From a virus (taxonomy: Duplodnaviria; Caudoviricetes): 54,137 nucleotides of DNA. Every line of letters begins with the position of its first letter. Within the stretch, counting starts at the first letter, position 1. The position numbers and the translations under genes are program-made. Below are positions 5,591 through 34,902 of this stretch, piece after piece. The notes beneath the pieces are model-generated. The model saw only the letters and a program-made list of their open reading frames with translations, was not told the DNA's origin and did not search any database. The stretch lies in the IMG/VR virus record IMGVR_UViG_3300027963_000098, positions 1 to 54,137 of that record; one strand, given 5' to 3'.

Positions 5591-8500
5591 ATGGATGTTC
5601 GGATGCCAGATGGCACCATTATCAGTGGTGTGCCAGATAATATAACTAAGTCTGAACTTCTGCGCCGGTATAGCGCGTATCAAAAAACACAAGAAGAACC
5701 GGAACCGACCAAAGATACCGGCCTGCTAGATATGACAGGCCGTGCTGTTATGCGCGGGGTTAAGCAGCTTGGGTCTACTTTCGGGGATGTCATTCCCGCT
5801 ATGGCCGCTTCTGCTGTTGGTGAAGATGAATACGCCAAGCGACAGATGGAAGAAGCTGCCGCCACGCAAAAAGAAATTAAAGAGAAGTATGCACCGCGAT
5901 ATGAAAGCTATCGTGATGTTAAGGGTCTTGGGGATGTGCTTCCGTATATCTTAGAGACTGGCGCAGAGCAGGTTCCCAACATTGCTTCGGTTCTTCTACC
6001 CGGCGGTGTCGCAGGTATGGGAGGTCGCGCCCTTGCTGGCCGTACAGCTACTGAAGCACTAGCGGCTCGCGCTGCTGAAAAAGGAATGACCGAGGAAGCC
6101 GCTGCTAATTTAGCAGCACGTGTACTTCCTAAAGCAGAAAGAACTGGTCAGCAATTTGGTCAGGCTGCTGGTGTGTATCTTGGTTCATACGCACTTAATT
6201 CCCCCGAAGTATTCCAGAATATCTATGAAAGGACTGGCAAGCTAGAACCGGGTGCTGCCGCTTTGGCTGGCTCCGTGTCCGCTGCATTGGATTCGGTGTT
6301 CCCTGCGTATGCGCTAAATAAACTTACCCCCGGCGTTAAGGCTGGGGTTGTTGAACGAATCCTTGAACGCTCTGGTATGAAGCCGGGCATTGCAAGAGGT
6401 GCCGCAGCCGATGTTATTACCGGTGTTGCAACCGAAGGCCCGACGGAAGCCGCGCAAGAGGCGATTAGCATTGCAGCAGAAAAGTTTGTGGATGACCATG
6501 CAGATGTATGGAATAGTCAAGATTTTCAAAGGGTAGTGGACGCTGGCGTTGCTGGAGCTGCTGGTTCTGTGTTGTTTGGTGGAGTGTCAGGTGCTGCTCG
6601 TGGTTATATGCAGAAGAAAGCCGGAGAAACCCCGCCCGCTGCTGAAGCTCCACCTCCACCTTCTAAGAATGCTTACGACGAAGCAGACCAGCATGACCTT
6701 GATTTAGAACAAGAAGCTGTTCGTCAAGCTCGTGGTGAAACCGCACCGCCTCCGCCCGCACCGCCTAGTACTGTAGACCGACTTGCAGAAGAAGCTTTCC
6801 CGTCAATGGAGACCCTGCAAGCTAAGTACGATGAGCTGGAAAAAGAAAGAAAGTCTTTATTAAAGCAAGAACAAAATGAGCAAGTACAAGCTCGCTTGCA
6901 AGAGATTGACGCGCAGCAAGAACAGATTGCTGGAGAACAAGACCAGCTAGAAAGCCGACTGCAGCAGCGCCTTGACAATCCCCCCCGTATGCCTTCCGCT
7001 CCCCTTGCATCTATGGGGCCACAGCAAGGGCTTGATTTTGGTGAGGCAGTTTCACAAGAAGAACGAACAGCACCGCAAACCACTACTGGAGAAGCCCCGC
7101 AACAAGGGCTGGACCTTGGTGCTCCTGTTGAAAAACCGCAAGCACCGCCCACCATTGAGACGGTTAAACCCGCTGAACAGTTAGTTACGGATGTAAGTGC
7201 GGCACCGTTGGAGCGGTTTCTTGCGGCTATTAAGCCTAGCTCTCCTTCCGAACTTGAAATTAAGAAACAGCGTAGTGCCCTTTTAGAAGACAAGGGTCTT
7301 ATTCGTGCTATCCGCGATATGTACGAAGACCTCAAGGCAGATGACAAAGAACTGCCGTACTACACCGAACTTATCAAAGAGTTCTTCAATAAATACTTAA
7401 AGCCGCTCAGTCCGGAAAGACTTAAAGAGTTTGAGAACTTTGACAAGCTGTCGGCAGAGGAACAAAAGCAGTTTTTAGCCAGCGCCACCAACCTACCCGA
7501 CCTTACCACATACGACGGGGTCAACAAGCTCAAACTTGCGTTCAATGACTTTGTTTCAGAACAGCAACTTAAAGGCTTAGGCATAACCCCGAGCACCAAC
7601 GCATACGCGCAAGCAAAACAAACACTGCGGAAGCTAAAGGAAAAAGTTAAGTCTGGCCTCAAGAACTTGGATAAGGCAGAGCGTGCGGCCAATGACTATT
7701 TCCGCCGGTTTAATTTCGATACTGCTCTTCGTGCAGCCGCCTTTGATATGGCGTATGGCACGCCGCGTAATGAGTTGTTTAGTGGGCAGGGTGCCGATTA
7801 TGCCCCATTCTTTCAAGAGTGGTTACTTACTAATGCTTCTCCAGAAGTAAACCGCAAGTTTGAACAGTACCGCCGTGCGTATGAACATCTTGCTACCCGT
7901 GATGCAGAAATCGACCGGCAACGGGAAGAGCGAAGTGAGCATCTAGAATCAGAAGCAGAAACCGTGCGTGAGTACGAGGAAGCCGAAAGAGAATCACGGC
8001 TTGGCCCCTTTGCTACTTCTGAAAAGGTATCCGGCTCCTTAACTCAAATGATGCACCCGGCAGTAGTTGGGGCCATTGAAAGAAACGACTTAAACGACGC
8101 TCTTAGAACGCTATTAGCTGTTCAAAAGAAAAACCTAACTCCATATCAGAAGCAGCTTATCACTAAGTTGCTGTCACTTAATCTTCAAACGTCTATTGGC
8201 TACAACAAACTTAACGAAAGCTATGAACATTTAGTAGATTCAAATTCATGGATTTTTAATTCTGCTGTTAATATCTATCATCAATTAAAAAATCTTGCAC
8301 CATATTACCCGCGTATAAATATGTATGTAAAAAGATTAGATGAAGTATATTCAAATTCCCCGACTAATACTGGTATAATTACAGGGATGTATTATACAAT
8401 TTCTAATATTATAGATTATAATAACCAAAATCAGATTATTCCACAGAATCTCTTTGATGAAATAAAAGAGCTTGGGAAAATACTAAAACGCGAAAATGAG

Positions 8501-11500
8501 ATTATAGAGGACTCTTGGGGCGTTTACTTTCCTGAGATAGATTCAATTTCATTAAATACTCTCAATAATATGGGTGCTAATTCTGTGTATGTATTTCTGC
8601 ACGAAGTTATGCACGCGGCAACTTCTAGAGTTTTAAATGACCCTTCAGCCTACGGCGCTCGGCAGCAAGAAGCAGCGTTTGAGCTAAAGAAACTGTACGC
8701 GCATTCTAAAGCTATTTCTAAACTCGATAAGTATGGATTTACAGACATTCACGAATTTGTATCTGAAGCATTTACAAATCACGAGTTTCAAAAAGTTCTT
8801 CAAGCGATTCAATACAAAAATACTTCTAAGTCTTGGTGGGATAAGTTTGTTCAGTTCTGTATGCAGATGTTTGGCGTTGATAATGTGCTTGGTCAGACAA
8901 TCATCCAAACCCAAGCTTTATTCGATGCACCACATAATAGGTTTGGTTTGGGCAGCCCCAACGCTGCCATGCGTGGGTACTACGAGAACAATTCAAACGA
9001 ACAGCCCGGCGCTATCCGTAACATCAGCAATCAAATCAGAAACTCCAAAGAATTCAACGATATTAAGATGATTCTTTCTGAGCTTTGGTCAACCATGAAA
9101 GACCAGACTCGAAAGTATTTCTTGGGCGCTTTTACTCTGCGTCAGCTCGAAGAAATGATTGGCATCGAGTACAACAGACTGACTGGAGAATTTGAAACCA
9201 AGGTCCCTCAAATCTCCTTGCTAATCAAGAATATCGAAGATATGCAGGATAGCCGTAACAAGACTATCCAAAAGGGTAAGCCTATTCTTGACAAACTAAT
9301 GAAGTTGTATTCGTCCAATAAGGCTACATCAGAACTGCTTACCCGCCTCATCCAAACGTCTACTGTTGAACAACTGGACCCATCTGTAGCAAACCCTGCC
9401 ACCCCTGCTGACAAAGAGAAAGCGGCGCTCCTAAAGCAGTTGACTGCAGATTGGGAGGCTCTTGGCAAGATGAAGGATGGTGCTGCCGCTCAAGAACTCT
9501 ATATTGAGATGCGTGATTTCTTTAGAGAGACCTTAGCAAACTACAAGCGTATTTCTGCGGAACGGGAATACCGCCGCATCATGGGGTCCAAGGAAGCCGC
9601 AGAACGCGCCACTAGAGAGCATGTTGCAAGGCAGTTGTTTGCTTATCGACAGCTATATACGGGCAAAACAGATGAAGAACTTAAAGCGCTCATCGAGTCT
9701 GAAATTGAGCAAGACGCTCAAAAGTTAATTGCTTCGGGTAAGGAAACAATAGATACGGCCACTGCACGAGTGCTAGCTGACAAGAAGATTGAGAGTCAGT
9801 TTAAGGAAATGATTGACCCGTACTTTCCACTCAAGCGGTTCGGGCGTTTTTGGTACAAAGAAGGTACCGGCAAAGACATGAAGTTCTATATGTTTGAGTC
9901 TGCCTATGAACGTAATGAAGCGCTGAAAGACGCAAGGGTGAAAGACCCCAAAGGAAATTTTGCTTCGGGTAACGATGTCCGCAGCATGACATCTACTGCT
10001 CTTCAAAACGCTCGATTGTTTGAAGAGCTTAAAGGGATGGTCACCAATGTAGACGAAAAAGACCCAGAAAAACTTAAGGAAGCTATCTTAGACCAGATGG
10101 GTGAATTGTTTATTACTACACTTCCATCGCAAAGTATTCGTAATATGTTCCTGCATCGTAAAAACGTCCCCGGCGCAAGTGCTGATATGGTTCGTAGTTT
10201 TGCGCATGCTATGTTTCACCTTGGATACCAGCAGGCTCGATTTGAATATGCGCCGCGTATGTTCGACAGTATGGAGGCAGCTCGTAATTTCTTGTCCACG
10301 CAAGGCATAGCCACAACTCCGGAAGAAGATGTAACCCGTCGCACATTGAATGATTACCTTAATGAAGTTCAACGGCGGTTAGATAATGTGCTTAGCCCAA
10401 TGGACCAAGCATCGTGGGTTACTTTTGTATCTAATCTTGGGTTCTTAAATTTCTTGACCTCCCCTGCATCTGCAATCGTGAACATGCTCGCAGTGCCTAC
10501 TATCGGCTATCCGGTGCTTGCTGGTCCGTATGGATGGGGTCCCGCTAGGCAGGCGTATAGCAAGTACATGAAGATGCTTAGTGGTAGTGGGTGGAAAGAT
10601 GAGCTTGGTAACTTTGATGCTCCGTCAATTGGGCGCAATAAGAATCTTACGGAAGTTGAAAAACGTGCCTACCAAGCGTTTATTGATTCTGGCCTTATTG
10701 ACGTATCTATGACGCACGATGTTGCGGGGCTTTCTGAGCAGCCCAGCAATGACTACACGGGCCGGTGGCATAAGGTTATGACTTTTGCTGCGTTCCCATT
10801 CCATAAGGCGGAACGATTTAACCGTGAAGTTACGGCTATGGCTGCGTTTGATTTAGCATACAAATCTAATGGTGGTAATTTTGAAGCGGCTGTAGAGAAA
10901 GCTAAGAACCTTACTTACAAGTCGATGTTTGACTATTCAACTGCTAATAAGCCGCGCTACTTCCAAGGCGACTTACCAAAGGTGCTGCTGCAGTTCAAGC
11001 AATACGCCCAGCATATGACTTATCTGTTGTTCCGCACTGCCTATGAATCTACAAATTTGATTGGGCAAAAAGAGTACGAACAACTTATGGCTGAAGGCAA
11101 AACTGACGAAGCCAATAAAGTCATGAAGGAGTCAATTGAACTTCGCAAAGATGCGCGGCGTACTTTTGCGGGCATGATGGGTATGTCATTCTTGTTTGCC
11201 GGTACGATGGGCATGCCGGTATGGTTTATCTTCTCCGGTATCGCCAATGCTTTTGCTTCTGTGTTCGGTGATGATGACGACGAGTACGACGTTGAAAACT
11301 GGTACAAGAATTGGTTGAACTCAGTGTTTGGTGGTTTTGTAGGCGACTCTATTGCACGGGGTGTTGTACCCCAGATTACAGGGGCCTCACTGTCAGACCG
11401 TATGAGCACCAATCTCACAGATATGTGGTGGCGCGATACCAAGAGAAACCAAGACGAAGTTACAAACACTCAGAATGCAATCATTAATTTGCTAGGCCCT

Positions 11501-12052
11501 TCTGCGGGTATGATTATTAATTCTGCCGAGGCTGTTAAGCGGTTCAATGATGGGCATGTGGAACGTGCATTTGAGACTATTGCTCCCGCTGCTATCAAGA
11601 ACATTATGGCTGGTAGTCGTTTAGCTTCTGAAGGCGCTCTTACAATGAAGGGCGATACCTTGCTTGAAAATATTTCGGCGAAAGAAGCATTTTTGCAGAT
11701 GCTTGGATTCTCGCCGGAACGGCTGGCGCAGCGTCAAGCAGCAAACATCGAAGCCAAGAGTATGGAAGAAGCGCTCAAGTCGCGCAGACAAGATTACTTG
11801 AACTTTCTTGCTATGGCTTACGATGCTGGTGATAGTGATGCGGTAGCTAAGATATTAGAAAAAATTGCTGATTGGAATATGGTACATCCAGAAAAAGAAT
11901 TTCAAATCAATTTTAATACCATCAAAGCTTCTATGAAGAAACGCGCCGTAGAACGAGCACAGGCAAGTATGTTTGGTGGCTTGCGTATAAATAAGGCTTT
12001 CATCAACCGTGCTGAAGAGATGACTGCTTACGCGGACGACGACGAAGAATAA
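5591..12052 (+). CDS. Large polyvalent/ejection protein with a HExxH zincin metallopeptidase and a PLxRFG domain
   Basis: 2153 aa; VFLHEVMHAAT...HEFVSEAF; PYFPLKRFG; last gene of the virion operon. Confidence 0.7.
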   Translation: MDVRMPDGTIISGVPDNITKSELLRRYSAYQKTQEEPEPTKDTGLLDMTGRAVMRGVKQLGSTFGDVIPAMAASAVGEDEYAKRQMEEAAATQKEIKEKYAPRYESYRDVKGLGDVLPYILETGAEQVPNIASVLLPGGVAGMGGRALAGRTATEALAARAAEKGMTEEAAANLAARVLPKAERTGQQFGQAAGVYLGSYALNSPEVFQNIYERTGKLEPGAAALAGSVSAALDSVFPAYALNKLTPGVKAGVVERILERSGMKPGIARGAAADVITGVATEGPTEAAQEAISIAAEKFVDDHADVWNSQDFQRVVDAGVAGAAGSVLFGGVSGAARGYMQKKAGETPPAAEAPPPPSKNAYDEADQHDLDLEQEAVRQARGETAPPPPAPPSTVDRLAEEAFPSMETLQAKYDELEKERKSLLKQEQNEQVQARLQEIDAQQEQIAGEQDQLESRLQQRLDNPPRMPSAPLASMGPQQGLDFGEAVSQEERTAPQTTTGEAPQQGLDLGAPVEKPQAPPTIETVKPAEQLVTDVSAAPLERFLAAIKPSSPSELEIKKQRSALLEDKGLIRAIRDMYEDLKADDKELPYYTELIKEFFNKYLKPLSPERLKEFENFDKLSAEEQKQFLASATNLPDLTTYDGVNKLKLAFNDFVSEQQLKGLGITPSTNAYAQAKQTLRKLKEKVKSGLKNLDKAERAANDYFRRFNFDTALRAAAFDMAYGTPRNELFSGQGADYAPFFQEWLLTNASPEVNRKFEQYRRAYEHLATRDAEIDRQREERSEHLESEAETVREYEEAERESRLGPFATSEKVSGSLTQMMHPAVVGAIERNDLNDALRTLLAVQKKNLTPYQKQLITKLLSLNLQTSIGYNKLNESYEHLVDSNSWIFNSAVNIYHQLKNLAPYYPRINMYVKRLDEVYSNSPTNTGIITGMYYTISNIIDYNNQNQIIPQNLFDEIKELGKILKRENEIIEDSWGVYFPEIDSISLNTLNNMGANSVYVFLHEVMHAATSRVLNDPSAYGARQQEAAFELKKLYAHSKAISKLDKYGFTDIHEFVSEAFTNHEFQKVLQAIQYKNTSKSWWDKFVQFCMQMFGVDNVLGQTIIQTQALFDAPHNRFGLGSPNAAMRGYYENNSNEQPGAIRNISNQIRNSKEFNDIKMILSELWSTMKDQTRKYFLGAFTLRQLEEMIGIEYNRLTGEFETKVPQISLLIKNIEDMQDSRNKTIQKGKPILDKLMKLYSSNKATSELLTRLIQTSTVEQLDPSVANPATPADKEKAALLKQLTADWEALGKMKDGAAAQELYIEMRDFFRETLANYKRISAEREYRRIMGSKEAAERATREHVARQLFAYRQLYTGKTDEELKALIESEIEQDAQKLIASGKETIDTATARVLADKKIESQFKEMIDPYFPLKRFGRFWYKEGTGKDMKFYMFESAYERNEALKDARVKDPKGNFASGNDVRSMTSTALQNARLFEELKGMVTNVDEKDPEKLKEAILDQMGELFITTLPSQSIRNMFLHRKNVPGASADMVRSFAHAMFHLGYQQARFEYAPRMFDSMEAARNFLSTQGIATTPEEDVTRRTLNDYLNEVQRRLDNVLSPMDQASWVTFVSNLGFLNFLTSPASAIVNMLAVPTIGYPVLAGPYGWGPARQAYSKYMKMLSGSGWKDELGNFDAPSIGRNKNLTEVEKRAYQAFIDSGLIDVSMTHDVAGLSEQPSNDYTGRWHKVMTFAAFPFHKAERFNREVTAMAAFDLAYKSNGGNFEAAVEKAKNLTYKSMFDYSTANKPRYFQGDLPKVLLQFKQYAQHMTYLLFRTAYESTNLIGQKEYEQLMAEGKTDEANKVMKESIELRKDARRTFAGMMGMSFLFAGTMGMPVWFIFSGIANAFASVFGDDDDEYDVENWYKNWLNSVFGGFVGDSIARGVVPQITGASLSDRMSTNLTDMWWRDTKRNQDEVTNTQNAIINLLGPSAGMIINSAEAVKRFNDGHVERAFETIAPAAIKNIMAGSRLASEGALTMKGDTLLENISAKEAFLQMLGFSPERLAQRQAANIEAKSMEEALKSRRQDYLNFLAMAYDAGDSDAVAKILEKIADWNMVHPEKEFQINFNTIKASMKKRAVERAQASMFGGLRINKAFINRAEEMTAYADDDEE

Positions 12053-12076
12053 AAAAACCCCGCACGAGGCGGGGTT
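12051..12076 (-). terminator. Intrinsic terminator between the convergent operons
   Basis: AACCCCGC/GCGGGGTT stem; T7 tail on the minus strand. Confidence 0.8.
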
Positions 12077-12111
12077 AAGGAGAGAGATAACCAAGAGGTG
12101 CCCTTGCGGGC
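12051..12111 (-). ncRNA. Putative ~60-nt antisense sRNA
   Basis: Upstream promoter, 5' GCCC-GCAA-GGGC hairpin, unpaired C/U-rich core, terminator. Confidence 0.55.
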
Positions 12112-12117
12112 AGGCGA

Positions 12118-12146
12118 AGTGTAGTATTTTCTTGGTTGAATTACAA
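12118..12146 (-). promoter_or_regulatory. Sigma70-type promoter for the putative sRNA
   Basis: TTGTAA-17 nt-TACACT on the minus strand. Confidence 0.55.
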
Positions 12147-12152
12147 GTCAGA

Positions 12153-14987
12153 TTACTCTGCAATAATTTCTTCTGTTTTCACTTTGTCAGCTAGCGTTTC
12201 AACAAAGTGCTGCGGGTCCACAATCTTGTCGTTAAACACAAAGACTTCGACAGGGGGCGACGGAATCTTGGTGCCCTTGGACATCCGCTTCTTCATAGTG
12301 CCTTCGTAAGCCTCGGCCTCACGCAACTTGATGAGCATGTCTTGCACGGGTACCTGCTGCTTGCTGCAATACTGCCGCAGATGCTTAGCTGAGATGTACG
12401 TCTTCTTGGTATCCGGTTCAATCCGAATAATAAGCTCTTGCTTAGGTTCAATCAGAGGAATCTGGTCTAGTCCTGTGCGGTTATCTGCCATGTCGTTAAT
12501 GACCAACACCTTGAACCAATTCTCGTTGATGAACTCACCAATGGTAGCGGTGTAGTCTTCGCTAGGAGCAATGATGCTCTCCTTCAACTCACGGAGCATG
12601 CCAACAACCCAATTGAAGACACGCATCATGTCGTAGTCAATCAAACCGCATTCTTTGGCAATCAGACCACCAGTGATATTGGCAGCGGCGGTAGCGGAGT
12701 AGAAACGTTCTCGGCTTTCCAACCCCACAAGTGCATCAAGTTTCTTTTGCACAGTGCGAAGCGTGTCAATGACCAAGTCCTTATTTTTCACAATATATTC
12801 AAGATAGATAGGACCTGCGTGGCCGTAGTTCTCGTACATAATTTGGAAGATTTCATCAGCTTCCTGCTTGGACAGATTCGAGGTACGGTTAACCGTGTAC
12901 TCGATAAGGCGCATCATTTCGCCATCCGGCGTTGCCTTTAAAGCACGCAGTTTGTCATAGAACGAAGCATTGGAGCTAGTCAAGCCAATGGTTGCCCACG
13001 TGGTCTTGTTTGGACGTTCCGCGTTCGTTTGCGATTGCATCCGGCCCTTATTGTGCCCTTGCGTAATACTATAAGATATGTCCGAAAAATCATCCCCAGT
13101 CATCTTGGTGAGTTCGTCACACGTGTAAGCAAAGTTGTTAAGCAAGCCAAGCCGGTGAATCTTGTGGTTGTAGGTGTCCTTCCATTGCGACATCAGTTCT
13201 TCGGGATGCCCAATGATGCTATTGCACAGCTTGAGGACGGTTGACTTACCTGTACCTGACTCTTTGTTAAGGAGGTTAATCAAGGAACCGCGCATGCCCA
13301 TAAACTTCATGAGGGGCGCACCGAAGCCGGATAGAAAGCCGAAAGCCTGTCCTTCAAAACCGACCATGTTGTAGACGTTGGCGCACTGCTTCCACTTCTC
13401 TAGAGTGCCCTTGGGTTCCATCCACTCAGCCAAAACTTTAGTAGCCGATGAAGGAGGGCTGTATTTAATTTCTGTGGCACTGATTTCTTTGGTACCAATA
13501 ATAATTTTGGTGTCATCATCAGCCCAACCAAATTGATTGCGCATGGACTCTGCTTCCTTTCGTGTCTGTAAATCTTTAACAACATCAATGATATAGGCCA
13601 TAATTAACTTCATCTGGTCACCGCCACACACCACACCGTGATGCGCGAGAATCTTTCGCAGTTCTTCTTTTGACCCGATGTCAGCCGCAACTATCGTGAA
13701 TTCTCTGGCCCCATCCACAGGCAGGTGCAAACGCATATGTATGCACTCGCCATCTCCGTCTTTGTCGTGCAACCGTTTGATTACGAACAAATAGTTTTCA
13801 TAAACAAGGATAGGGTCACCATCCGTGACATTCTTGTAGACGCCTTTGAATTTACCGGCAAAGTAGGGAGAAGGAAGGTCTGGAATCTCGTACTTCCTTA
13901 GAGACCCATCAGACTCCTGTTCAACGATGTCTTTTTCCCCTGCCGCCATAGTCTCGTTGCCGAGAACAATTGGTGACTTAATACGCCCACGGTATTTGCA
14001 GTTCTCACACCCACTAGCATTAAGCGATTCAAACTTAGAGCAAGTGTATGGCCCAGCGATTGAGGCTGCTTTTCTTTTCGTACTTTCCGGAGAATAGTCA
14101 GGGTGTTGGTCAGATATAAGGTGGATAGCACTAGCGCCATCTACGCAGTGATTCGCAATAGACAGGCCAGCCCTCCACAACGGCTCTTCAATTTCTGCTT
14201 GATTGACGATGATGTTTTCAATTTGGGCACAACCGTCTCCTTCAGCAGTGCGTTCAATAAGTTTCGTGAACACTGACTGCTTGTTAGCCATGAGGGACAT
14301 GGTCAACTCATTGGGCCGCGAAGAAGGTGTAAAAGAACCGAACCCAAGTAAATCTGACTTTATCTCTTCTAAACAACTTTTGAAGAACTCTAATGTCACG
14401 GGTTCTGCCCAGTTAGCCACCGTTACATGTAGCGGAGGGTCCACCTTGAAATTCAAAGTCTCTGGGATACGCAGGATACGAACTGCATCCGTAGTACAAG
14501 CAGCATCTGCTTGAAGGTTATGTTTGTTGCATGTTTTAGTAAGGGCTTCTGCAATAGGCTTCCAGTCCGAAACTTCTATCGTTTCAGTCAGGGGCCAATA
14601 CACATGAAGACCACGACCAGAATCAACGATTGTTGGAAGTGGTAACTTAGTGGATTCGCAAAAGCCGGTTAGTGCGAGAAGTCCATCTTGTTGTGTTTCA
14701 TATGGTTTGCCAATACCACAGTCAATATCTAACCAAAACGCCTTGTTATTCAGAGCATTGTCGTAGTTACGTTTGGCGTTAGCGCCCCTGCCTTCTTTGA
14801 ATTTGGCAAGGGAAAAGAACGCGTTATACCCTTCGGTAACAAGACGCGTAGCAATAGGCTCAACATCATCAAGTGATTGAGTGAAGAACCGCTGCGGTTT
14901 TTTATCGACCCCATCTGGAGCAAGGCCAGCGATGCAGTACCAGCCATCTGTACCAAGCACATGCTCCAGTAATTCGCGCATAGCCAT
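12153..14987 (-). CDS. Primase-helicase (RepB/AEP-type primase plus DUF927-like region and P-loop helicase)
   Basis: WLDID and SGRGLHVYW primase motifs; Cys cluster CSKF..GCENC; Walker A ESGTGKST; Walker B CDE. Confidence 0.8.
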   Translation of the reverse strand: MAMRELLEHVLGTDGWYCIAGLAPDGVDKKPQRFFTQSLDDVEPIATRLVTEGYNAFFSLAKFKEGRGANAKRNYDNALNNKAFWLDIDCGIGKPYETQQDGLLALTGFCESTKLPLPTIVDSGRGLHVYWPLTETIEVSDWKPIAEALTKTCNKHNLQADAACTTDAVRILRIPETLNFKVDPPLHVTVANWAEPVTLEFFKSCLEEIKSDLLGFGSFTPSSRPNELTMSLMANKQSVFTKLIERTAEGDGCAQIENIIVNQAEIEEPLWRAGLSIANHCVDGASAIHLISDQHPDYSPESTKRKAASIAGPYTCSKFESLNASGCENCKYRGRIKSPIVLGNETMAAGEKDIVEQESDGSLRKYEIPDLPSPYFAGKFKGVYKNVTDGDPILVYENYLFVIKRLHDKDGDGECIHMRLHLPVDGAREFTIVAADIGSKEELRKILAHHGVVCGGDQMKLIMAYIIDVVKDLQTRKEAESMRNQFGWADDDTKIIIGTKEISATEIKYSPPSSATKVLAEWMEPKGTLEKWKQCANVYNMVGFEGQAFGFLSGFGAPLMKFMGMRGSLINLLNKESGTGKSTVLKLCNSIIGHPEELMSQWKDTYNHKIHRLGLLNNFAYTCDELTKMTGDDFSDISYSITQGHNKGRMQSQTNAERPNKTTWATIGLTSSNASFYDKLRALKATPDGEMMRLIEYTVNRTSNLSKQEADEIFQIMYENYGHAGPIYLEYIVKNKDLVIDTLRTVQKKLDALVGLESRERFYSATAAANITGGLIAKECGLIDYDMMRVFNWVVGMLRELKESIIAPSEDYTATIGEFINENWFKVLVINDMADNRTGLDQIPLIEPKQELIIRIEPDTKKTYISAKHLRQYCSKQQVPVQDMLIKLREAEAYEGTMKKRMSKGTKIPSPPVEVFVFNDKIVDPQHFVETLADKVKTEEIIAE

Positions 14988-16166: not shown

Positions 16167-16571
16167 TTAAGAGTTACGTGCGCGAGTTACACGGACTTCA
16201 TATTCCCGATTGACATTGAGTCCTTCTGGATGGATGTCGGGATTCTCCTCCAGAAATTGTTTCATCGACGTTTGGTTAATCCGCTTGTGCAGCAGATTGA
16301 AAGCATCATGGTCTCTGATGAAACGATACATCGAGTCCCAGTCGCTAGTCCAGTAGTCGGTTTTCACGGTGCGGCTAATTGTCCCGTGTGCAGTGCGGAT
16401 GCTTTCTGCTTGATTGCTCTCACAGATTTCCAGAAGCGCCTTGGAGATTTCCTCCAGTTGCTCATCCAACTCCTTGACTTGGAGTTCCATCTGCCGCTTG
16501 ATGTCTTGCTTCTGGTCTCGAATTGCCACGTATGCAGCAACGAGGTCGTCAGTATTAATTACATCAGACAT
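16167..16571 (-). CDS. Conserved phage protein (coiled coil, Gam-like)
   Basis: N-terminal coiled coil, SIRTAHGT and DWDSMYRFI motifs; GAGAGG RBS. Confidence 0.5.
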   Translation of the reverse strand: MSDVINTDDLVAAYVAIRDQKQDIKRQMELQVKELDEQLEEISKALLEICESNQAESIRTAHGTISRTVKTDYWTSDWDSMYRFIRDHDAFNLLHKRINQTSMKQFLEENPDIHPEGLNVNREYEVRVTRARNS

Positions 16572-16623
16572 AAATAACCTCTCTTGGTTGGTCTCAGAAC
16601 TCGGGTCTGCGCCCGATGTGTGA

Positions 16624-16652
16624 ATAGTAGAGCAGTTATTTTACTGTGTCAA
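16624..16652 (-). promoter_or_regulatory. Strong sigma70-type promoter for the SSB/primase genes
   Basis: TTGACA-17 nt-TACTAT on the minus strand. Confidence 0.75.
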
Positions 16653-23639: not shown

Positions 23640-23728
23640 TGGTGCCAGAGGCCGGAATCGAACCGGCACAACCTGTTATGGTCGGCAGATTTTAAGTCTG
23701 CTGTGTCTACCGATTTCACCACTCTGGC
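23640..23728 (-). tRNA. trnL: tRNA-Leu (anticodon UAA)
   Basis: GCCAGAG/CTCTGGC acceptor stem with encoded ACCA; anticodon arm GCAGA-CTTAAAA-TCTGC; long variable arm; GGTTCGATTCC T-arm. Confidence 0.95.
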
Positions 23729-25684: not shown

Positions 25685-25802
25685 GGACATCATGACGCCG
25701 TGTCAGTTTGTCCCAATAAAAAAGCCACCCGAAGGTGGCTGGCCGGACATCATGACGCCATGTCAGATTGTCCCAAATAAAAGGGCCACCCGAAGGTGGC
25801 CC
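25685..25802. repeat. Tandem ~60-bp duplication of palindrome plus terminator hairpin
   Basis: Two copies of GGACATCATGACGCC(G/A)TGTCAG(T/A)TTGTCCC, A-tract, GCCACCCGAAGGTGGC. Confidence 0.9.
25715..25802 (-). terminator. Two intrinsic terminators ending the early operon
   Basis: GCCACC-TTCG-GGTGGC stems, each followed by a T-run on the minus strand. Confidence 0.8.
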
Positions 25803-25920
25803 AGTACTACTAAAGGAGGCTACACAGTTGTTACATCTTGTAGGCTAAAGCAGATTCCACGTCCTACTCGTGGTTGGGAGGGTGCCGGTTCTACCGGCGC
25901 AGGGATAACTTACATCTGCT
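25803..25920 (-). ncRNA. Putative structured RNA (three-way junction plus anti-SD tail)
   Basis: Stems AGCAGAT/ATCTGCT, GCCGGT/ACCGGC, CCACG/CGTGG in a non-coding gap before a terminator. Confidence 0.4.
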
Positions 25921-25946
25921 AGGTTCATTATCCGTGCTCATATATT

Positions 25947-27096: not shown

Positions 27097-27978
27097 TTAA
27101 AAGTTAAACTTCGACAGGATGTCGTCCACTTCGGACTTGACTTTGCTGCGTACTTCTTCGGACTCTTTCAAGTCTTCGGTGTCTACGCTATTCACGACTG
27201 CGTTGAACCGACGACGAGCCTCTTCGAGTTTGGGGTCTTGTGTCAGGTTGAGGTGCTTGAGAACATCGCACAGGTCGCGGGCGTTAGTAATCATTGAATC
27301 ATGAATGCGACGCTTCTTAACCTTCTCCCCGTTTGCCGGTTCAGTAACCTCTTCCAACTTGGTACTCATGTGGACGAGACTATCGCGTAGTCTGCCATAG
27401 ATTTCCTCCACGCCAGTTTGGATTCGGCTTTCCAACGCCGCCTCGTATTGCTTCTGCAATTCCTCCATCGCCTCGTTGCCCACATCTACACGGAAGTCAC
27501 CCGCCGCAGGGACGGGCAGAAAGGAATAACGGAAACTGAAACTATGGATAATCTCATGCTTGGGCGGGTAGTCCGATGCCACAAACATATCAACAAGCAC
27601 GTTCTCGGCTTCCTTCACCAAGTCTTCGTAGCGGTCTTTGAACTCTTCAACCATGTCACTACGCCGCATCTCGTAGTGTGAAAGAGTCTGCTTGTAGTTG
27701 AAGAAGTTTGATGCCGCAAGCAAGCGTGGGCCACGGTCTGACCACGGCAGGGTTTGGGATTGATGCCACAAACGGATACTTGCATCGAACTTGTTGATGT
27801 CAGCCAGAAGACTTGTACCAGCAAACAGGTTCTTAGTAACCTTGGCTACCTTTGCCGTGGCATTCTTGATTACATTAACTTCGTCCGACATATTGCGGTC
27901 GGTGATGTTGGCGGTCCACGACTTGATGTTGAGGTCCACGAGCATTGCGCTCGATGCGATGCTGATGCTGTTTTGCAT
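27097..27978 (-). CDS. DUF3150-like protein
   Basis: SSAMLVDLNIKSW..KNLF..TLPWSDRGPRLL..DYP..LNLTQDPKL; start reassigned to MQNSIS after AAGGAGA. Confidence 0.65.
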   Translation of the reverse strand: MQNSISIASSAMLVDLNIKSWTANITDRNMSDEVNVIKNATAKVAKVTKNLFAGTSLLADINKFDASIRLWHQSQTLPWSDRGPRLLAASNFFNYKQTLSHYEMRRSDMVEEFKDRYEDLVKEAENVLVDMFVASDYPPKHEIIHSFSFRYSFLPVPAAGDFRVDVGNEAMEELQKQYEAALESRIQTGVEEIYGRLRDSLVHMSTKLEEVTEPANGEKVKKRRIHDSMITNARDLCDVLKHLNLTQDPKLEEARRRFNAVVNSVDTEDLKESEEVRSKVKSEVDDILSKFNF

Positions 27979-27998
27979 TTTATTCTCCTTGGTTATCG

Positions 27999-28027
27999 GG
28001 ACAACCTGACACCATGTCAGATTGTCC
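27999..28027. promoter_or_regulatory. 29-bp palindrome, copy 3
   Basis: GGACA-ACC-TGAC-ACCAT-GTCA-GAT-TGTCC. Confidence 0.85.
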
Positions 28028-28227: not shown

Positions 28228-29502
28228 TTACTCCTTGATGTGAATAGTTTTGCCAGACTCGGCGTTAAATGAGGGATTACCAACCACGCACCAGATAATC
28301 GGACACCCCAAGTCTGCCCAATTACCCTCTCCATGAAAGTACCCATCAGTAAGGACAATAACTACGTCCACCTGCTGGCCTTCACCTTGGATGATTTTGT
28401 TTTTGATGTACGGCGGCAGACAAGACGGGTCTGTGCCACCACCTCCCCTCGGTTGTGTAGTCTTATCAATCTGGTCGTACTCCGCCGGAGCGTAGACTTC
28501 ATGCCCCGCAACTCGGGTATCCCAGTACAGATGATGCAAGCCTTCGGGCGTAACCTCGTTGCAGATAGACTTCACCTCGGACATGAACTTGCCAAGGATA
28601 GGGCCACCGATGGAACCAGATGTATCAACACAGTCTACGATAAACCCGACGCGGTGCTCGATGTTTTGAGGAAGATAAATGTCAGCCCCAAGATGACGAC
28701 GGCTGAATCGACGCCACGATGAGTCCCCGCTACCCTTGCATACATTCTTAACAAGGTCTCGCAGTACGTCACGCCAATCGACTTCTGGCTCCACGAGTTC
28801 TACTAAGTCGCGGGGCACATCACCACCCATCTTCCCAACCAACTGCTTACCCTGCTGCAAGGCACGGTTGATGCGACTCTCCAGTTCGCGCTTCTCCTTG
28901 TCAGTCAGTTCCTTGTCACCATCCCAATCGTGCTCATCGAACTGATTGTCATCAAGTTTCTTGCGGCTCTTACCTTGTTTCTTACCCCCGCTACCATCGA
29001 CAGGTTCGCCGTCTTCGCAAGGTTCACCGTCCCCCTCGCAATCATCTTCGAGTTCCTTCATCAGGTCATCGAACACTTGCTTCGAGTCCCAACCGCGATA
29101 CTTCTCATCAAGCAGGCCCATGCGGCTACCATCAGGGAACGTGGGGAATTGAATCTCCTGCTCATCAGGGTCTTGGTCAATCAACTGAAGATTGATGACG
29201 TAGTCACACGCTGCGTTAGCAACGAGCGGGTCTTTGCGATATAGGTTCTTCCACACGCTAGTGTGACGCCATGCGATATGTGACAACTCATGCAACACCA
29301 CGAACAAGAGTTGCTTCTGGTTTAGGGAATCAACGAACTCCCGACCATACCACACATCGGCTCCATTGGTACGTGCAGTCGGAACGTCATCATCGACGAA
29401 CACCTTGCCGACCATCGTCATACCCGCAAAGAAGCGAAACTTCTTCGATTGTAGAATTGAGACGTGAGCACGCTCAATCTTCTGCTCTGCTGTTATCTTC
29501 AT
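28228..29502 (-). CDS. Metallopeptidase plus VWA domain protein (DUF2201-like)
   Basis: HELSH, ACDYVIN, MIDAS DTSGS, GGGT, LTDG. Confidence 0.85.
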   Translation of the reverse strand: MKITAEQKIERAHVSILQSKKFRFFAGMTMVGKVFVDDDVPTARTNGADVWYGREFVDSLNQKQLLFVVLHELSHIAWRHTSVWKNLYRKDPLVANAACDYVINLQLIDQDPDEQEIQFPTFPDGSRMGLLDEKYRGWDSKQVFDDLMKELEDDCEGDGEPCEDGEPVDGSGGKKQGKSRKKLDDNQFDEHDWDGDKELTDKEKRELESRINRALQQGKQLVGKMGGDVPRDLVELVEPEVDWRDVLRDLVKNVCKGSGDSSWRRFSRRHLGADIYLPQNIEHRVGFIVDCVDTSGSIGGPILGKFMSEVKSICNEVTPEGLHHLYWDTRVAGHEVYAPAEYDQIDKTTQPRGGGGTDPSCLPPYIKNKIIQGEGQQVDVVIVLTDGYFHGEGNWADLGCPIIWCVVGNPSFNAESGKTIHIKE

Positions 29503-29512
29503 GCTTCTCTCC

Positions 29513-29800
29513 TTAATGGACAATGTGACCGGATGTCAGATTGTCCTCGTCTTCGTCAATGCCCTTGGTTACCAAGTAACTCATCTGCATTCCGTACAGG
29601 AACCCCTCCATACTGAGTCCGTTCTGTACCGCGAGTATTGCCGCAGACTTACCCAATACAGTCATGCAGTGGGCGATTGCGTCTCGCTTGTCTTTTATGT
29701 TGTTAGTGTTGTTAATCACTTTCTTGATTGCTTCCAACATAATCGCAAGGTCTCTCTCGGCAGCGGCTATCTGCTCATCCGTGATGTCATCTTCAGTCAT
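29513..29800 (-). CDS. Hypothetical protein
   Basis: 95-aa ORF with GGAG RBS. Confidence 0.6.
   Translation of the reverse strand: MTEDDITDEQIAAAERDLAIMLEAIKKVINNTNNIKDKRDAIAHCMTVLGKSAAILAVQNGLSMEGFLYGMQMSYLVTKGIDEDEDNLTSGHIVH
29518..29546. promoter_or_regulatory. 29-bp palindrome, copy 4
   Basis: GGACA-ATG-TGAC-CGGAT-GTCA-GAT-TGTCC. Confidence 0.85.
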
Positions 29801-29811
29801 GGTGTATCTCC

Positions 29812-30873
29812 CTAGAAAAGGTATTGGTTTTCACGCGCCCAGTCGATGAACGGCTGGCTGGAAAAGAGAATGCGCTTCTTCTCTTCGTTCTTTGCTGCTG
29901 TCAGGCAGAAGATAGATTGCAACTCTTTGGGTGCTCTCTTCATGTAAATGAACCACTTGCCGATGGTGCTGCGGTCAACCCATTGCACCGCCCCGAACGC
30001 GAGGATGCACAATGCTGCGGGGTCAGTCGGAACTCTTGCTGTTTCAGGAGTGTCGATGATGTCCTTACGCAAAGGTAGCGAGTCAGACAGGGCGATGAAC
30101 GCAGACAACTGCTGCGCCGCCGTCCCACCGATTGTGCCTTGCAATGCACAGATAAGCGCCCCCTCGCTGAACTTGTCACGCGCCTTGATGATATTGCTAG
30201 CCAGTTCCAAGGAACGCGGCGACACAAAGGACTTCTGGTTGTGTCGTGGGTTGTAGATGAGGTGGTTGTTCTCTTGCGCCGCATCCAGATATGAAGCAAG
30301 GCAATGCGTGTTCTCGTGTACCCACGCCAACATGACCGGAGCAATCCTGTCGCTGCCCCAGTTAATCCATTCCTCCGCACTCGGCTTGCGTATATTGAGT
30401 ACCGACAGACGGTTTCGACTGTGAGCCGCCATCACGTCGCCTACCCCATCGCTTGTCAAGTTACCCGCAGTTAGCACCACAGACGACGGGTGTAGAGTCA
30501 ACCCACCGACACGGCGCGGGTTAGTGAGTAGCGGATGCAGCATGTTCTTAACAGCAGGAGCACCCTTGGTGAACTCATCGAGCATGATACAAAGTGGTTC
30601 GTCAAGATGGAAACCCCAATGCTCACTCGGGTAGAGGGAGGTGGTGCGCGTCTCGCGGTCAGGCATGGGAATGCCCAAGTCACCCAACTCGGTATTCGGT
30701 ACGTCGATGTAAATACCTTTCATGTTGAGACGTTCGGCAATCACTCGGTGCATGCTGGTTTTACCAACGCCGGGTTCGCCGACAAGATGGAATGTATTAC
30801 CCGATGCACAGGCAACGATAAGGTCAGCGGCCTCGTTGAGGGAAACGTTCTGCTCAAGGTGAATCTGGTTCAT
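29812..30873 (-). CDS. MoxR-like AAA+ ATPase
   Basis: GEPGVGKT, MLDEF, AGN, SPRS motifs; near the VWA gene. Confidence 0.85.
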   Translation of the reverse strand: MNQIHLEQNVSLNEAADLIVACASGNTFHLVGEPGVGKTSMHRVIAERLNMKGIYIDVPNTELGDLGIPMPDRETRTTSLYPSEHWGFHLDEPLCIMLDEFTKGAPAVKNMLHPLLTNPRRVGGLTLHPSSVVLTAGNLTSDGVGDVMAAHSRNRLSVLNIRKPSAEEWINWGSDRIAPVMLAWVHENTHCLASYLDAAQENNHLIYNPRHNQKSFVSPRSLELASNIIKARDKFSEGALICALQGTIGGTAAQQLSAFIALSDSLPLRKDIIDTPETARVPTDPAALCILAFGAVQWVDRSTIGKWFIYMKRAPKELQSIFCLTAAKNEEKKRILFSSQPFIDWARENQYLF

Positions 30874-30897
30874 GATTTGGTCCTCTCTTGGTTTAGG

Positions 30898-32049
30898 TTA
30901 AACGTGGACATTCTGACGACGTGTCAGGTTGTCCCTCAGATACTGATATGTATACACATAACAAGTATTTCTCTCACTAGGTAATACCCCTGTCTCCACT
31001 TCTTTGCTTACAAAGCATACATCTGCATATGCTATCTTAAGTACATCGTCAAAAACTTCTAAAAGCGTGCTTGCGGGTATGCTGCTCCGCAACTCTGGTG
31101 TTTTGTGATAACCGTCTCCCACGAATGTTGCCAACAAGTCATGCTTAGTTGATGTACCAGCATCGACTCTAAAATTCGCAGCAACGCTTGCTGCTAGAAG
31201 CACTGTCAGTTTGCGCCAGTCATCAGGCTTGCTTGACTGCGCTAGATTAAGCGCATTGTTGAGGTTGTAACTCGCGTCCTCTTTGTCCTCCTCTTTGGCT
31301 TTCATTACAATTCTCATAGACGGGAGCAGTGTGTACTGAGTTTGGAACATCTGCTGAATCGAAAGGCGCATATTCCATATGGGGTTGACAGACCATTGAC
31401 TGTTTGCTTTATTCGCTATGTCAACAAGCATGTTTGAAACAAACCTAGCCCCCACCTGCGGGAAGCACTCAATCAATTCATCAGATGAATAAACGTCCGA
31501 AATCGCCGCCGTTACCTTGAGGTAGTTGATGAAGTCCGAGTACGCACGTCGCACCGCGTTGAGTGCCTTGCGATTGGCTACGTATTCGTATTTCACTGGT
31601 GCGTTAAGAGGCTCAAGCGTAGTCCACTCTTTGTCAGCCTTGAAGTACACCCATCCGTTCTTTGGTATCTCATAGTTGAGCGCCTTGTCAGGCCGAGGCA
31701 CAGTAAGAATTACTTTGTTGTCCTTCCGATACACCGTCCCGAGAGTGGCGGGGAGCACCGCATCCAAGAACTTGGCCGTAGTTATAGACGGCCAGCCGCA
31801 ACAGTTGAATGCAACCGTGCCATCCTTGGCGTACGTCATGACTATGTTGTCGTACAGTTTGAACTGCAGGCGTTCGTCTGCCATCTCGATGGAGCATTGC
31901 TTGTACCTACGGTTATTCCCGACCGGACGAATCGGCGGGTTGCTGCCACGGATAGGCTTGACCTCGTTGTAGAACTTGAGTGCGGTCTCGTAGTTCTTGA
32001 AGTCATGCCAACTGATTGAAGCAGGGTGATGCCTCGAGTGTCCCCACAT
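30898..32049 (-). CDS. Hypothetical early protein
   Basis: ~383 aa; KPIRG..IRPVG motif; GGAGG upstream. Confidence 0.7.
   Translation of the reverse strand: MWGHSRHHPASISWHDFKNYETALKFYNEVKPIRGSNPPIRPVGNNRRYKQCSIEMADERLQFKLYDNIVMTYAKDGTVAFNCCGWPSITTAKFLDAVLPATLGTVYRKDNKVILTVPRPDKALNYEIPKNGWVYFKADKEWTTLEPLNAPVKYEYVANRKALNAVRRAYSDFINYLKVTAAISDVYSSDELIECFPQVGARFVSNMLVDIANKANSQWSVNPIWNMRLSIQQMFQTQYTLLPSMRIVMKAKEEDKEDASYNLNNALNLAQSSKPDDWRKLTVLLAASVAANFRVDAGTSTKHDLLATFVGDGYHKTPELRSSIPASTLLEVFDDVLKIAYADVCFVSKEVETGVLPSERNTCYVYTYQYLRDNLTRRQNVHV
30906..30934. promoter_or_regulatory. 29-bp palindrome, copy 5
   Basis: GGACA-TTC-TGAC-GACGT-GTCA-GGT-TGTCC. Confidence 0.85.
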
Positions 32050-34873: not shown

Positions 34874-34902
34874 GGACATTCTGACCGGATGTCAGGTTGT
34901 CC
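34874..34902. promoter_or_regulatory. 29-bp palindrome, copy 9
   Basis: GGACA-TTC-TGAC-CGGAT-GTCA-GGT-TGTCC; supplies the stop codon of the upstream gene. Confidence 0.85.

Follow-up and report, generated by a model that had tools for sequence, protein, structure and literature searches.

Few phage small RNAs (sRNAs) are known to act on the genes of their own phage, and those treated in sections 4 and 9 of the review PMC12197685 mostly control one gene and come largely from temperate phages. In the c4 antisense RNA of P1 and P7 (Rfam C4, RF01695), exposed sequences pair in trans with the ribosome-binding site (RBS) region of a phage message and block its translation, and the RNA and its target differ together between related phages (PMC12197685, section 9). 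According to the portion of PMC3868564 that deals with icaR of Staphylococcus aureus, an anti-Shine-Dalgarno (anti-SD) motif within the untranslated 3′ region (3′-UTR) pairs with the Shine-Dalgarno (SD) sequence, blocks initiation and creates a substrate for RNase III. On the target side, the portion of PMC3203893 on start-associated sequences (SAS) and extended start-associated sequences (ESAS) of Cluster K mycobacteriophages describes a 13-nt motif with AGGAG in it, found 3-7 bp ahead of the start codons of non-structural genes; inverted repeats precede about half of the SAS copies, and a single copy occurs on the complementary strand. The subject of the present analysis is an RNA unit on the minus strand of an uncultured freshwater phage, located in a 100-bp spacer (12053-12152) between two converging genes. 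The analyzed DNA, hereafter called the window, is the whole 54,137-bp IMG/VR virus record IMGVR_UViG_3300027963_000098, which is ~86% complete. An earlier note, made from the letters of this DNA, had proposed a trans-acting sRNA at this place that represses early genes. The observation behind that proposal is confirmed and its interpretation is supported in part: the unit is conserved, its stems covary and its predicted open stretch tracks the leaders of early genes, while repression and its timing are effects that we infer. The unit is likely to be a functional anti-leader RNA that, as an sRNA and/or as the tail of an operon transcript, would block the RBSs of early genes by base-pairing.

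The promoter TTGTAA-17-TACACT, the hairpin at 12111, the core and the terminator on which the proposal was built were all found where they had been placed. The unit consists of the following parts, all on the minus strand.

12141..12146, minus strand: -35-like hexamer TTGTAA, 6 nt past the stop codon of the primase gene
Between the two hexamers, minus strand: promoter spacer of 17 nt
12118..12123, minus strand: -10-like hexamer TACACT, from reading of the sequence
12051..12111, minus strand: predicted non-coding RNA of ~61 nt, with its predicted +1 at 12111, the first base of the 5′ hairpin
12100..12111, minus strand: 5′ hairpin GCCC-GCAA-GGGC, from sequence and fold
12077..12099, minus strand: open CU-rich anti-leader core ACCUCUUGGUUAUCUCUCUCCUU, 23 nt, from sequence and fold
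12051..12076, minus strand: intrinsic terminator, with a stem at 12076-12056 of 8 pairs (6 of them G-C), a loop of 5 and a U run

The predicted 3′ end of the RNA falls in the U run, which overlaps the stop codon (12050-12052) of the converging 2153-aa gene. When a 62-nt RNA was folded, it formed the 5′ hairpin and the terminator with an energy of -24.4 kcal/mol (z -3.85), which none of 200 shuffled sequences equaled; RNA positions 24-35, in the core, were unpaired, and the first ten bases of the core took part in no more than a weak 3-bp hairpin (ACC/GGU). Within a read-through RNA of greater length, UCUUGGUU of the core is able to pair with AACCAAGA upstream of it; this upstream sequence sits in the promoter spacer and is not conserved in relatives. 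The RNA unit lies on the same strand as the intrinsic terminator, as expected of an independent sRNA gene.

The earlier note had listed six matches between the core and start regions of minus-strand genes, and all six are present at the coordinates it gave. The four longest lie in the following leaders, in which AACCAAG is joined to the SD sequence.

16572..16600, minus strand: leader and RBS of the DUF7307 gene (134 aa, 16167..16571), with AACCAAGAG at 16581-16589 complementary to CUCUUGGUU
30874..30900, minus strand: leader of the AAA ATPase gene (29812..30873), with AACCAAGAG at 30885-30893
27979..28000, minus strand: leader of a 293-aa gene (27097..27978), with GATAACCAAG at 27988-27997
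29503..29520, minus strand: leader of the DUF2201 (VWA-like/metallopeptidase) gene (28228..29502), with TTAAGGAGAGA at 29506-29516; a doubtful target

The other two, at the 34518 and 34853 leaders, are 7-mers of the AAGGAGA type and are no better than generic SD pairing. Start regions were taken as positions -30 to +6 of heuristically called genes, which gave 45 on the same strand as the RNA and 43 on the opposite strand. Complementarity of at least 9 nt was found in 4/45 same-strand and 2/43 opposite-strand start regions. With 2000 shuffled 25-mers, the mean numbers were 0.20 and 0.09, respectively, and none reached 4. When the CTCCTT hexamer was held fixed, the mean rose to 0.48 (P 0.001), and the 14-nt half of the core outside the anti-SD part still matched 3/45 same-strand and 0/43 opposite-strand start regions when taken alone (P 0.0015). 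The complementarity of the core to start regions of the window therefore exceeds chance. The duplex between the DUF7307 leader and the RNA had a predicted energy of -21.5 kcal/mol. The DUF7307 protein itself belongs to the Pfam family 'Pam3 gp33-like', with a weak likeness to Mu Gam, and to PHROG 13900.

The 5-11 kb of early strand upstream of each unit in related loci were searched for the stretch with the longest complementarity to the RNA body, which in most lineages fell on the RBS of the 129-145-aa ortholog of the DUF7307 gene at 16167..16571. In 38 loci, which fall into 15 sequence groups, both the RNA unit and the DUF7307 start region were available. The longest Watson-Crick match of the RNA to the DUF7307 start averaged 9.66 nt within the same phage and 6.12 nt across groups, and the corresponding mean duplex energies were -22.0 and -15.2 kcal/mol. 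When group representatives were permuted, 0 of 20000 permutations reached the observed sums. The paired words differ by lineage and read AACCAAGAG, TAACCAAGAGAG, ACCAAAATGA, AACCTAAAGGAA, AAGGAAAACGAA and TGGAGCTAACA, with AGAGGAGCAAAC, GAAGGAGCAAAC, GAAGGAGCAAACT, GAAGGAGCAT, GAAGGAGCAG and GAAAGGAACA as further lineage-specific words, and the pairing ends 0-10 nt upstream of the start codon. Within the whole 5-11 kb of strand, the 45-nt DUF7307 start region gave the unique longest match in 16/38 loci and a tied one in another 6/38. Judged by these sequence comparisons, the open stretch of the predicted RNA tracks an early-gene start region of the same phage, lineage by lineage, and the DUF7307 leader is its most consistent candidate target. 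This is the covariation of seed and leaders in related phages that the earlier note had named as a check.

Other early leaders may take part as well. In the ~40% supergroup, the same extended site, AAGGAGCAAAC, also occurs ahead of the SNF2 helicase gene and other early genes. The RNA hairpin there has GGAAG or GAGAG as its 5′ arm, which varies in step with the 3′ arm and with the leader. Across four genomes, namely the window and three others designated G1 (63 kb, complete), G4 (53.5 kb) and G5 (65 kb, complete), matches of at least 9 nt were found in 18/180 same-strand and 4/190 opposite-strand start regions (Fisher P 0.0016). Among the targets named by the earlier note, three held up in the 85% sister lineage, record G9: the DUF7307 leader (16581 in the window), the AAA ATPase leader (30885) and the leader of the 293-aa gene (27988) are complementary over 12, 11 and 10 nt to that lineage's own RNA. 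The 11-nt match of the AAA ATPase leader reads AACCAAGAGAG, and the match sequence of the 293-aa gene, GATAACCAAG, is identical in the two lineages. The remaining named targets fared less well; the extended 11-nt match of the DUF2201 gene is lost in the sister lineage, where it reads CTAGGAGACAAG and only AGGAGA remains, and the 34518 and 34853 leaders stayed at the generic level described above. As a separate observation, G1 (loci L017-L020) gave the strongest single match in any genome: upstream of its DNA polymerase gene, the start region of a 152-aa gene contains a 15-nt perfect complement to the RNA of that phage, GAATACCAAAATGAA, which includes the start codon.

The unit itself is conserved in position, sequence and structure. 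In six close relatives, taken from IMG/VR and metagenome contigs with primases 78-85% identical to that of the window, the two hexamers and the RNA body are kept and the promoter spacer and flanks vary. The -35 hexamer is TTGTAA or TTGCAA in all six, the -10 hexamer is TACACT, TAGACT or TACAAT, and the spacer is 17 nt long in every case and varies in sequence. The 5′ hairpin GCCC-GCAA-GGGC (TGCCCGCAAGGGCAC), TTGGTTA and TCTCTCCT are invariant in 6/6, a result that bears out the UUGGUU seed that the earlier note had expected to be conserved. Changes occur on both sides of the terminator stem. Insertions and deletions of 1, 2 and 4 nt occur inside the RNA body, so that a coding frame is excluded; they break the sole overlapping frame, 11855..12163. 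Tiny open reading frames (ORFs) in the unit (6 codons in the window and 21 in G1, considering either strand) were also rejected as candidates, as they lack a conserved start, frame or spacing.

A primase profile extended the family to 77 metagenome loci from lakes and other fresh waters, with primase identities of 39-100%. At least 120 nt followed the primase stop codon in 65 of these, and a script found a terminator within 650 nt in 61/65, yielding 44 distinct units. It found none in L050, L057, L069 and L075, three of which have <260 nt of downstream DNA. One of the 44 units (L082), in which the finder had taken the 5′ hairpin for the terminator, was left out, and 43 were analyzed. All 43 lie at the same position and share one architecture, the order everywhere being promoter-like hexamers or the end of an ORF, then the 5′ hairpin and the CU-rich stretch, followed by a strong terminator that is G+C in its stem and has a T run, and finally the converging giant gene. 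The longest T run in the tail was at least 5 in 40/43. CTCCT occurred in 33/43 RNA bodies and TGGTT in 14/43, and 0/43 control segments 1 kb upstream contained them. More distant relatives have different hairpins at the position of the 5′ hairpin, and in the fold of the ~40% group the seed lies in a 7-nt loop plus the 3′ arm.

Both stems show compensatory change and the secondary structure is conserved. In 11 hand-checked units of the ~40% group, for which the structure was given by hand, 88.8% of cells pair and compensatory change is seen in 9/18 pairs; none of 500 shuffles reached this level of pairing, and controls in which the structure was slid along gave 45-57%. In 24 units aligned with a covariance model (R1) built from the ~40% group, 92.7% of cells pair and 14/18 pairs show compensatory change, in an alignment fitted to the structure. 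Over 1.12 Mb, model R1 reported one unit per locus, and it detected the window unit at 12050-12107 on the minus strand with 16.9 bits (E 0.036). A second match in G4 (L139:11793-11861, 26.1 bits) was rejected as it is a terminator with a different hairpin and without the anti-SD stretch. The consensus that RNAalifold derived from 18 units in a plain MAFFT alignment was poor, with the 6- and 7-nt-loop hairpins out of register. Folds of six relatives have the same three-part shape as the window RNA, and a stretch of L054 taken at the wrong place folded no better than its shuffles. Outside this family, blastn of 11400-12900 against the phage collection gave no match. The nearest cultured phage by primase is Pseudomonas phage Rollin (30% identity), whose genes overlap at the convergence point and leave no space for the RNA unit.

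A number of results weigh against the anti-leader RNA. On the side of transcription, the TTGTAA/TACACT promoter is weak, with 8/12 consensus positions, and it is absent from the promoter-scan list because the scan needs at least 9/12. In 24/43 units there is a TTGnnn-17/18-TAnnnT promoter whose +1 (position +7 after the -10) falls on the base that opens the 5′ hairpin or on one beside it, with a purine at the +1 in 22/24. By this rule a clear promoter is missing from the other 19/43, namely L092 and 18 units that belong to the ~40% supergroup; they have only a TGA-TAnnnn arrangement, perhaps an extended -10. In many units, conserved codons of a small ORF extend over the -35, which is free of coding constraint only in the window lineage. 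(In L029-L099, with primases at most 56% identical, an extra ORF of ~65 aa with the ending ..GLRIWR separates the primase gene from the RNA unit, its last codons overlapping the -35; the window lineage is without it.) Metatranscriptome data were sparse: the contigs of one lake RNA run contained 13% of sampled words, as pieces of a related strain, and those of two more runs contained none. The related-strain contigs cover none of 12051-12152, and one that spans an inferred ~12163-12395 stops short of it, which is uninformative either way.

On the side of pairing, the longest match lies outside the DUF7307 start region in 16/38 loci, often on another start region. A mirror-strand duplex test was flat, at -22.0 versus -21.8 kcal/mol, with the actual strand ahead in 20 of the 38 loci, level in 2 and behind in 16. 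In groups 6-9 (L046, L048, L049 and L088) the own match is 5-8 nt and covers the SD core only, and in L026 and L027 it is 6 nt of exact pairing, the duplexes having energies of -16.2 and -14.3 kcal/mol with G:U pairs counted in. Of 7 loci with the loop variants AUGCUCC and CUGCUCC, only 2 (L066 and L073) have a variant that suits the base following GGAGCA in the leader; L071, L072, L078, L062 and L065 do not. Chance matches of 11 nt also turn up in cross-genome controls, for example between the window core and the interior of a gene of G1, and the loss of the extended DUF2201 match in the sister lineage belongs with these results.

These points bear differently on the explanations that compete with an sRNA. 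It is rather unlikely that the anti-leader acts only as the 3′ tail of the early (primase) operon mRNA, pairing with RBSs on the same or sister transcripts in the manner of icaR, and that no separate sRNA exists. The unit does follow the last early ORF and precede the sole terminator of the operon, so that all full-length operon transcripts carry it; the units without a clear promoter would suit a tail, and the anti-SD motif in the icaR 3′-UTR of S. aureus provides a precedent, in the part of PMC3868564 that describes it. The promoter of the window lineage, however, has no overlapping ORF, and its hexamers and 17-nt spacing are nonetheless kept while the spacer sequence varies, and in the 24/43 units with a promoter the predicted +1 coincides with the start of the hairpin. 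The sRNA and the operon tail are not mutually exclusive forms. We find little probability in an ordinary terminator spacer, in which the hairpins end transcription from both sides and a chance pyrimidine tract mirrors any SD sequence. CUCCUU is indeed the complement of AAGGAG, start regions of late genes with TTAAGGAGA also match over 9 nt (2/43), and groups 6-9 pair at the SD level only. A chance tract would nevertheless leave aside the matches of the non-SD half (3/45 same-strand, 0/43 opposite, P 0.0015), the reach of the paired words well past the SD sequence with their differences between lineages (0/20000 permutations), and an open stretch that is invariant in relatives whose flanks vary.

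The equal duplex energies for both readings of the strand would be expected if a short motif were read by a protein or the ribosome, with the reverse copy being a DNA site that serves in either orientation or a leader decoy on late-strand read-through transcripts. A co-evolving binding protein would also make all copies in a genome co-vary, and the SAS/ESAS authors, in the part of PMC3203893 concerned, leave the reader open as 'either RNA or protein'. Several observations make such a reader improbable all the same: the forward copies always overlap the SD sequence 0-10 nt before a start codon, often at gene junctions within operons, which is a position for translational control and not for an operator; the U tract follows the terminator stem on the early strand only; no start codon or conserved ORF stands behind the reverse copy on the late strand; and transitions in the extended leader/RNA alignments (31 distinct pairs) were G:U-compatible in 6 cases and of the A:C type in 0, beside 8 transversions, although this count is weak evidence. 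It is also quite improbable that the RNA chiefly targets host messages during host take-over, with the matches to phage leaders being secondary. The phage sRNAs PreS and VpdS do act on host mRNAs (PMC12197685, section 4), and a CU-rich seed would suit many host RBSs, but host targeting does not account for a seed that tracks the phage's own leaders. A primase profile scan of species genomes revealed no close prophage relative or host, the best of 14 loci having 26% identity over the full length.

Other candidates were set aside. The hairpin and CU tract, which we take to resemble boxB and boxA, suggested a nut-like antitermination site; beyond the terminator on that strand, there is only antisense of the late gene. 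A mimic of a CRISPR repeat does not fit, as what comes after the terminator stem is a U run instead of a repeat tail. The covariation with start regions would not be explained by a replication primer or origin. Finally, a cis-antisense RNA of the sar/OOP type is at odds with the layout, in which the unit overlaps only the stop codon at 12050-12052 and its targets lie 4-19 kb away with matches of 9-12 nt.

The favored anti-leader RNA would work as follows. In the window lineage, a small RNA would be made from the minus strand, from 12111 to ~12051, by its own sigma-70-like promoter, and the same sequence would form the 3′ tail of primase-operon transcripts that reach the shared terminator. Its open CU-rich stretch would pair with the extended leaders (AACCAAG plus the SD sequence) of early genes of the same phage, the DUF7307 134-aa gene being the most consistent predicted partner and the AAA ATPase and 293-aa genes further candidates in the window lineage. 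Base-pairing across the SD sequence near the start codon is expected to block binding of the 30S subunit, as is established for sRNA action. Since the predicted pairing spans the SD sequence and stops within 0-10 nt of the start codon, on its upstream side, exclusion of the 30S subunit and reduced translation should follow. The RNA thus probably lowers the expression of several of its own phage's early genes, and its role may be that of negative feedback or of a timer on early proteins. The seed is conserved and largely unpaired in the folds, and its complementarity exceeds chance and co-varies with the targets, as expected of a trans-acting base-pairing regulator. We infer that the promoter would fire, that the pairing would take place in the cell, and that repression and its timing would result.

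The genes on both sides of the unit are oriented toward it.

5591..12052, plus strand: converging giant gene, 2153 aa, a late gene
12153..14987, minus strand: primase/helicase-like gene (DUF927), 944 aa, the last gene of the early operon

The 2153-aa protein had no Pfam match; PHROG families of giant proteins, among them one labelled DarB-like antirestriction, are matched by its C-terminal 900 residues. In the relatives examined, the RNA unit likewise faces a converging giant gene that is homologous. A terminator scan found no terminator between the primase stop codon and 12076, so a transcript reading through the primase gene would carry the RNA unit as its 3′ tail. The minus strand from 12153 to ~35250 holds replication and early genes, including those for an SNF2 helicase, a family A DNA polymerase, the AAA ATPase and DUF2201, and blocks on the plus strand carry terminase, portal and structural genes. 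A tRNA-Leu gene (anticodon TAA) lies inside the early region at 23640-23728 on the minus strand; metatranscriptome contigs that touch it continue into unrelated sequence and belong to other organisms.

Three further features were noted in the early region. A 29-bp palindrome of the type GGACAAnCTGACAnnnnGTCAnnATGTCC occurs in minus-strand leaders at 27999-28027, 29518-29546, 30906-30934 and 34874-34902, directly upstream of the RBSs of the 293-aa, DUF2201, AAA ATPase and 92-aa genes, and is kept, with changes, ahead of the same genes in the sister record G9. Three of the four best target leaders stand directly behind a copy of it. Just upstream of the DUF7307 leader (16600-16625, minus strand) is a hairpin, CGGGC-GCAG-ACCCG, which in L025-L045 shows the compensatory changes CAGGC..CCUG, CGGAC..UCCG and CUGGC..CCAG; in some lineages, the predicted pairing of the RNA extends to the 3′ arm of this hairpin. 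Lastly, a second structured non-coding tail lies at 25776-25925 on the minus strand, at the end of another early operon, with several hairpins, GCCUCCUUUAG (like the 3′ end of 16S rRNA) and a terminator, GGGCCACC-UUCG-GGUGGCCC, followed by Us. This tail could be a second anti-SD RNA.

Searches among known RNA families set the unit apart. With Rfam 15, whose families include sar and isrK, at gathering thresholds, the only match in the whole window was a tRNA at 23643-23728. On 11950-12250, up to E = 10, the best match was RF02278, with 21.2 bits against a gathering score of 50, and C4 (RF01695) gave no match. The RF02278 match covers only the terminator end (12050-12085), and the unit is not a member of that family, whose betaproteobacterial 'toxic small RNAs' are 57-92 nt long, have terminators, occur in Burkholderia and are stated to be of unknown function in the part of PMC4603805 that presents them. 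Neither the RNA family nor an anti-SD RNA for multiple leaders in lytic phages is described in the portions of the open-access literature covered, including sections 4 and 9 of PMC12197685. Metagenome comparison alone has here led to an RNA family with a putative promoter, a defined fold and seed, and a target that co-varies across ~15 sequence groups, with members throughout a broad lineage of lake phages that are uncultured.

If the proposed function is correct, one small RNA that reads a shared leader can perform early-gene shut-off, and the ~100-bp unit with three leaders would make a clonable test system. More tentatively, many unrelated phages may mark a set of early genes with a private, extended RBS 'address' and keep one antisense copy in a small structured RNA at an operon end, which would shut the whole set as an RNA counterpart of RegA. 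As address and reader drift together, such a pair would be lineage-specific, and it could also act between co-infecting relatives, by interference or by translational immunity. We regard this wider proposal as possible but doubtful; were it true, the SAS/ESAS motifs found in Cluster K mycobacteriophages would be accounted for along the same lines.

The phage T4 protein RegA occupies the initiation regions of many early messages and thereby lowers their translation, and 3′-UTR sRNAs with internal promoters are an established class. The unit would be a functional analogue of RegA, with one product for many early messages, the difference being that its reader would be RNA. It resembles the bacterial 3′-UTR-derived sRNAs, which have their terminator in common with the gene upstream, and the CU-rich anti-SD sRNAs in its length of ~60 nt, its CU-rich open stretch, its U-tailed terminator and its several predicted RBS targets. 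Like icaR, it has a pyrimidine-rich anti-SD motif just ahead of the end of a message. The icaR message, however, carries a single gene and pairs with itself, whereas the targets here lie 4.4 kb upstream or in other operons, and a separate promoter is likely in the window lineage.

The closest likeness on the target side is to SAS/ESAS. The window has leaders with AACCAAG and an SD sequence, a 29-bp palindrome before several of them and one reverse copy, although phage group, host and motif are unrelated to those of the mycobacteriophages. In the right 40 kb of Mycobacterium phage Anaya (JF704106, L159), we found 17 SAS-like sites, 16 of them forward and before genes and 1 reverse. The reverse copy (L159 39871-39883) is located past the last annotated gene and the terminator of that gene, in non-coding DNA; read on the gene strand, CCUCCUAUCC falls in the 10-nt loop of a predicted GCGCGG/CCGCGC hairpin, from a single-sequence fold. 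If the window RNA works as proposed, an RNA reader is also suggested for the long-unexplained start-associated sequences of mycobacteriophages.

Taken as a whole, the unit represents a new RNA family that would work like a known kind. In logic it is closest to c4, as a short phage RNA that is complementary to RBS regions of its own phage and changes with its target. It shows no likeness to c4 in sequence or structure. Unlike c4, an RNA from the immunity operon of temperate phages that has a single antirepressor operon under its control, the window unit ends a replication operon at a convergent junction, and no sign of lysogeny appeared in the primase profile scan of species genomes. Here, moreover, several early genes carry the target.

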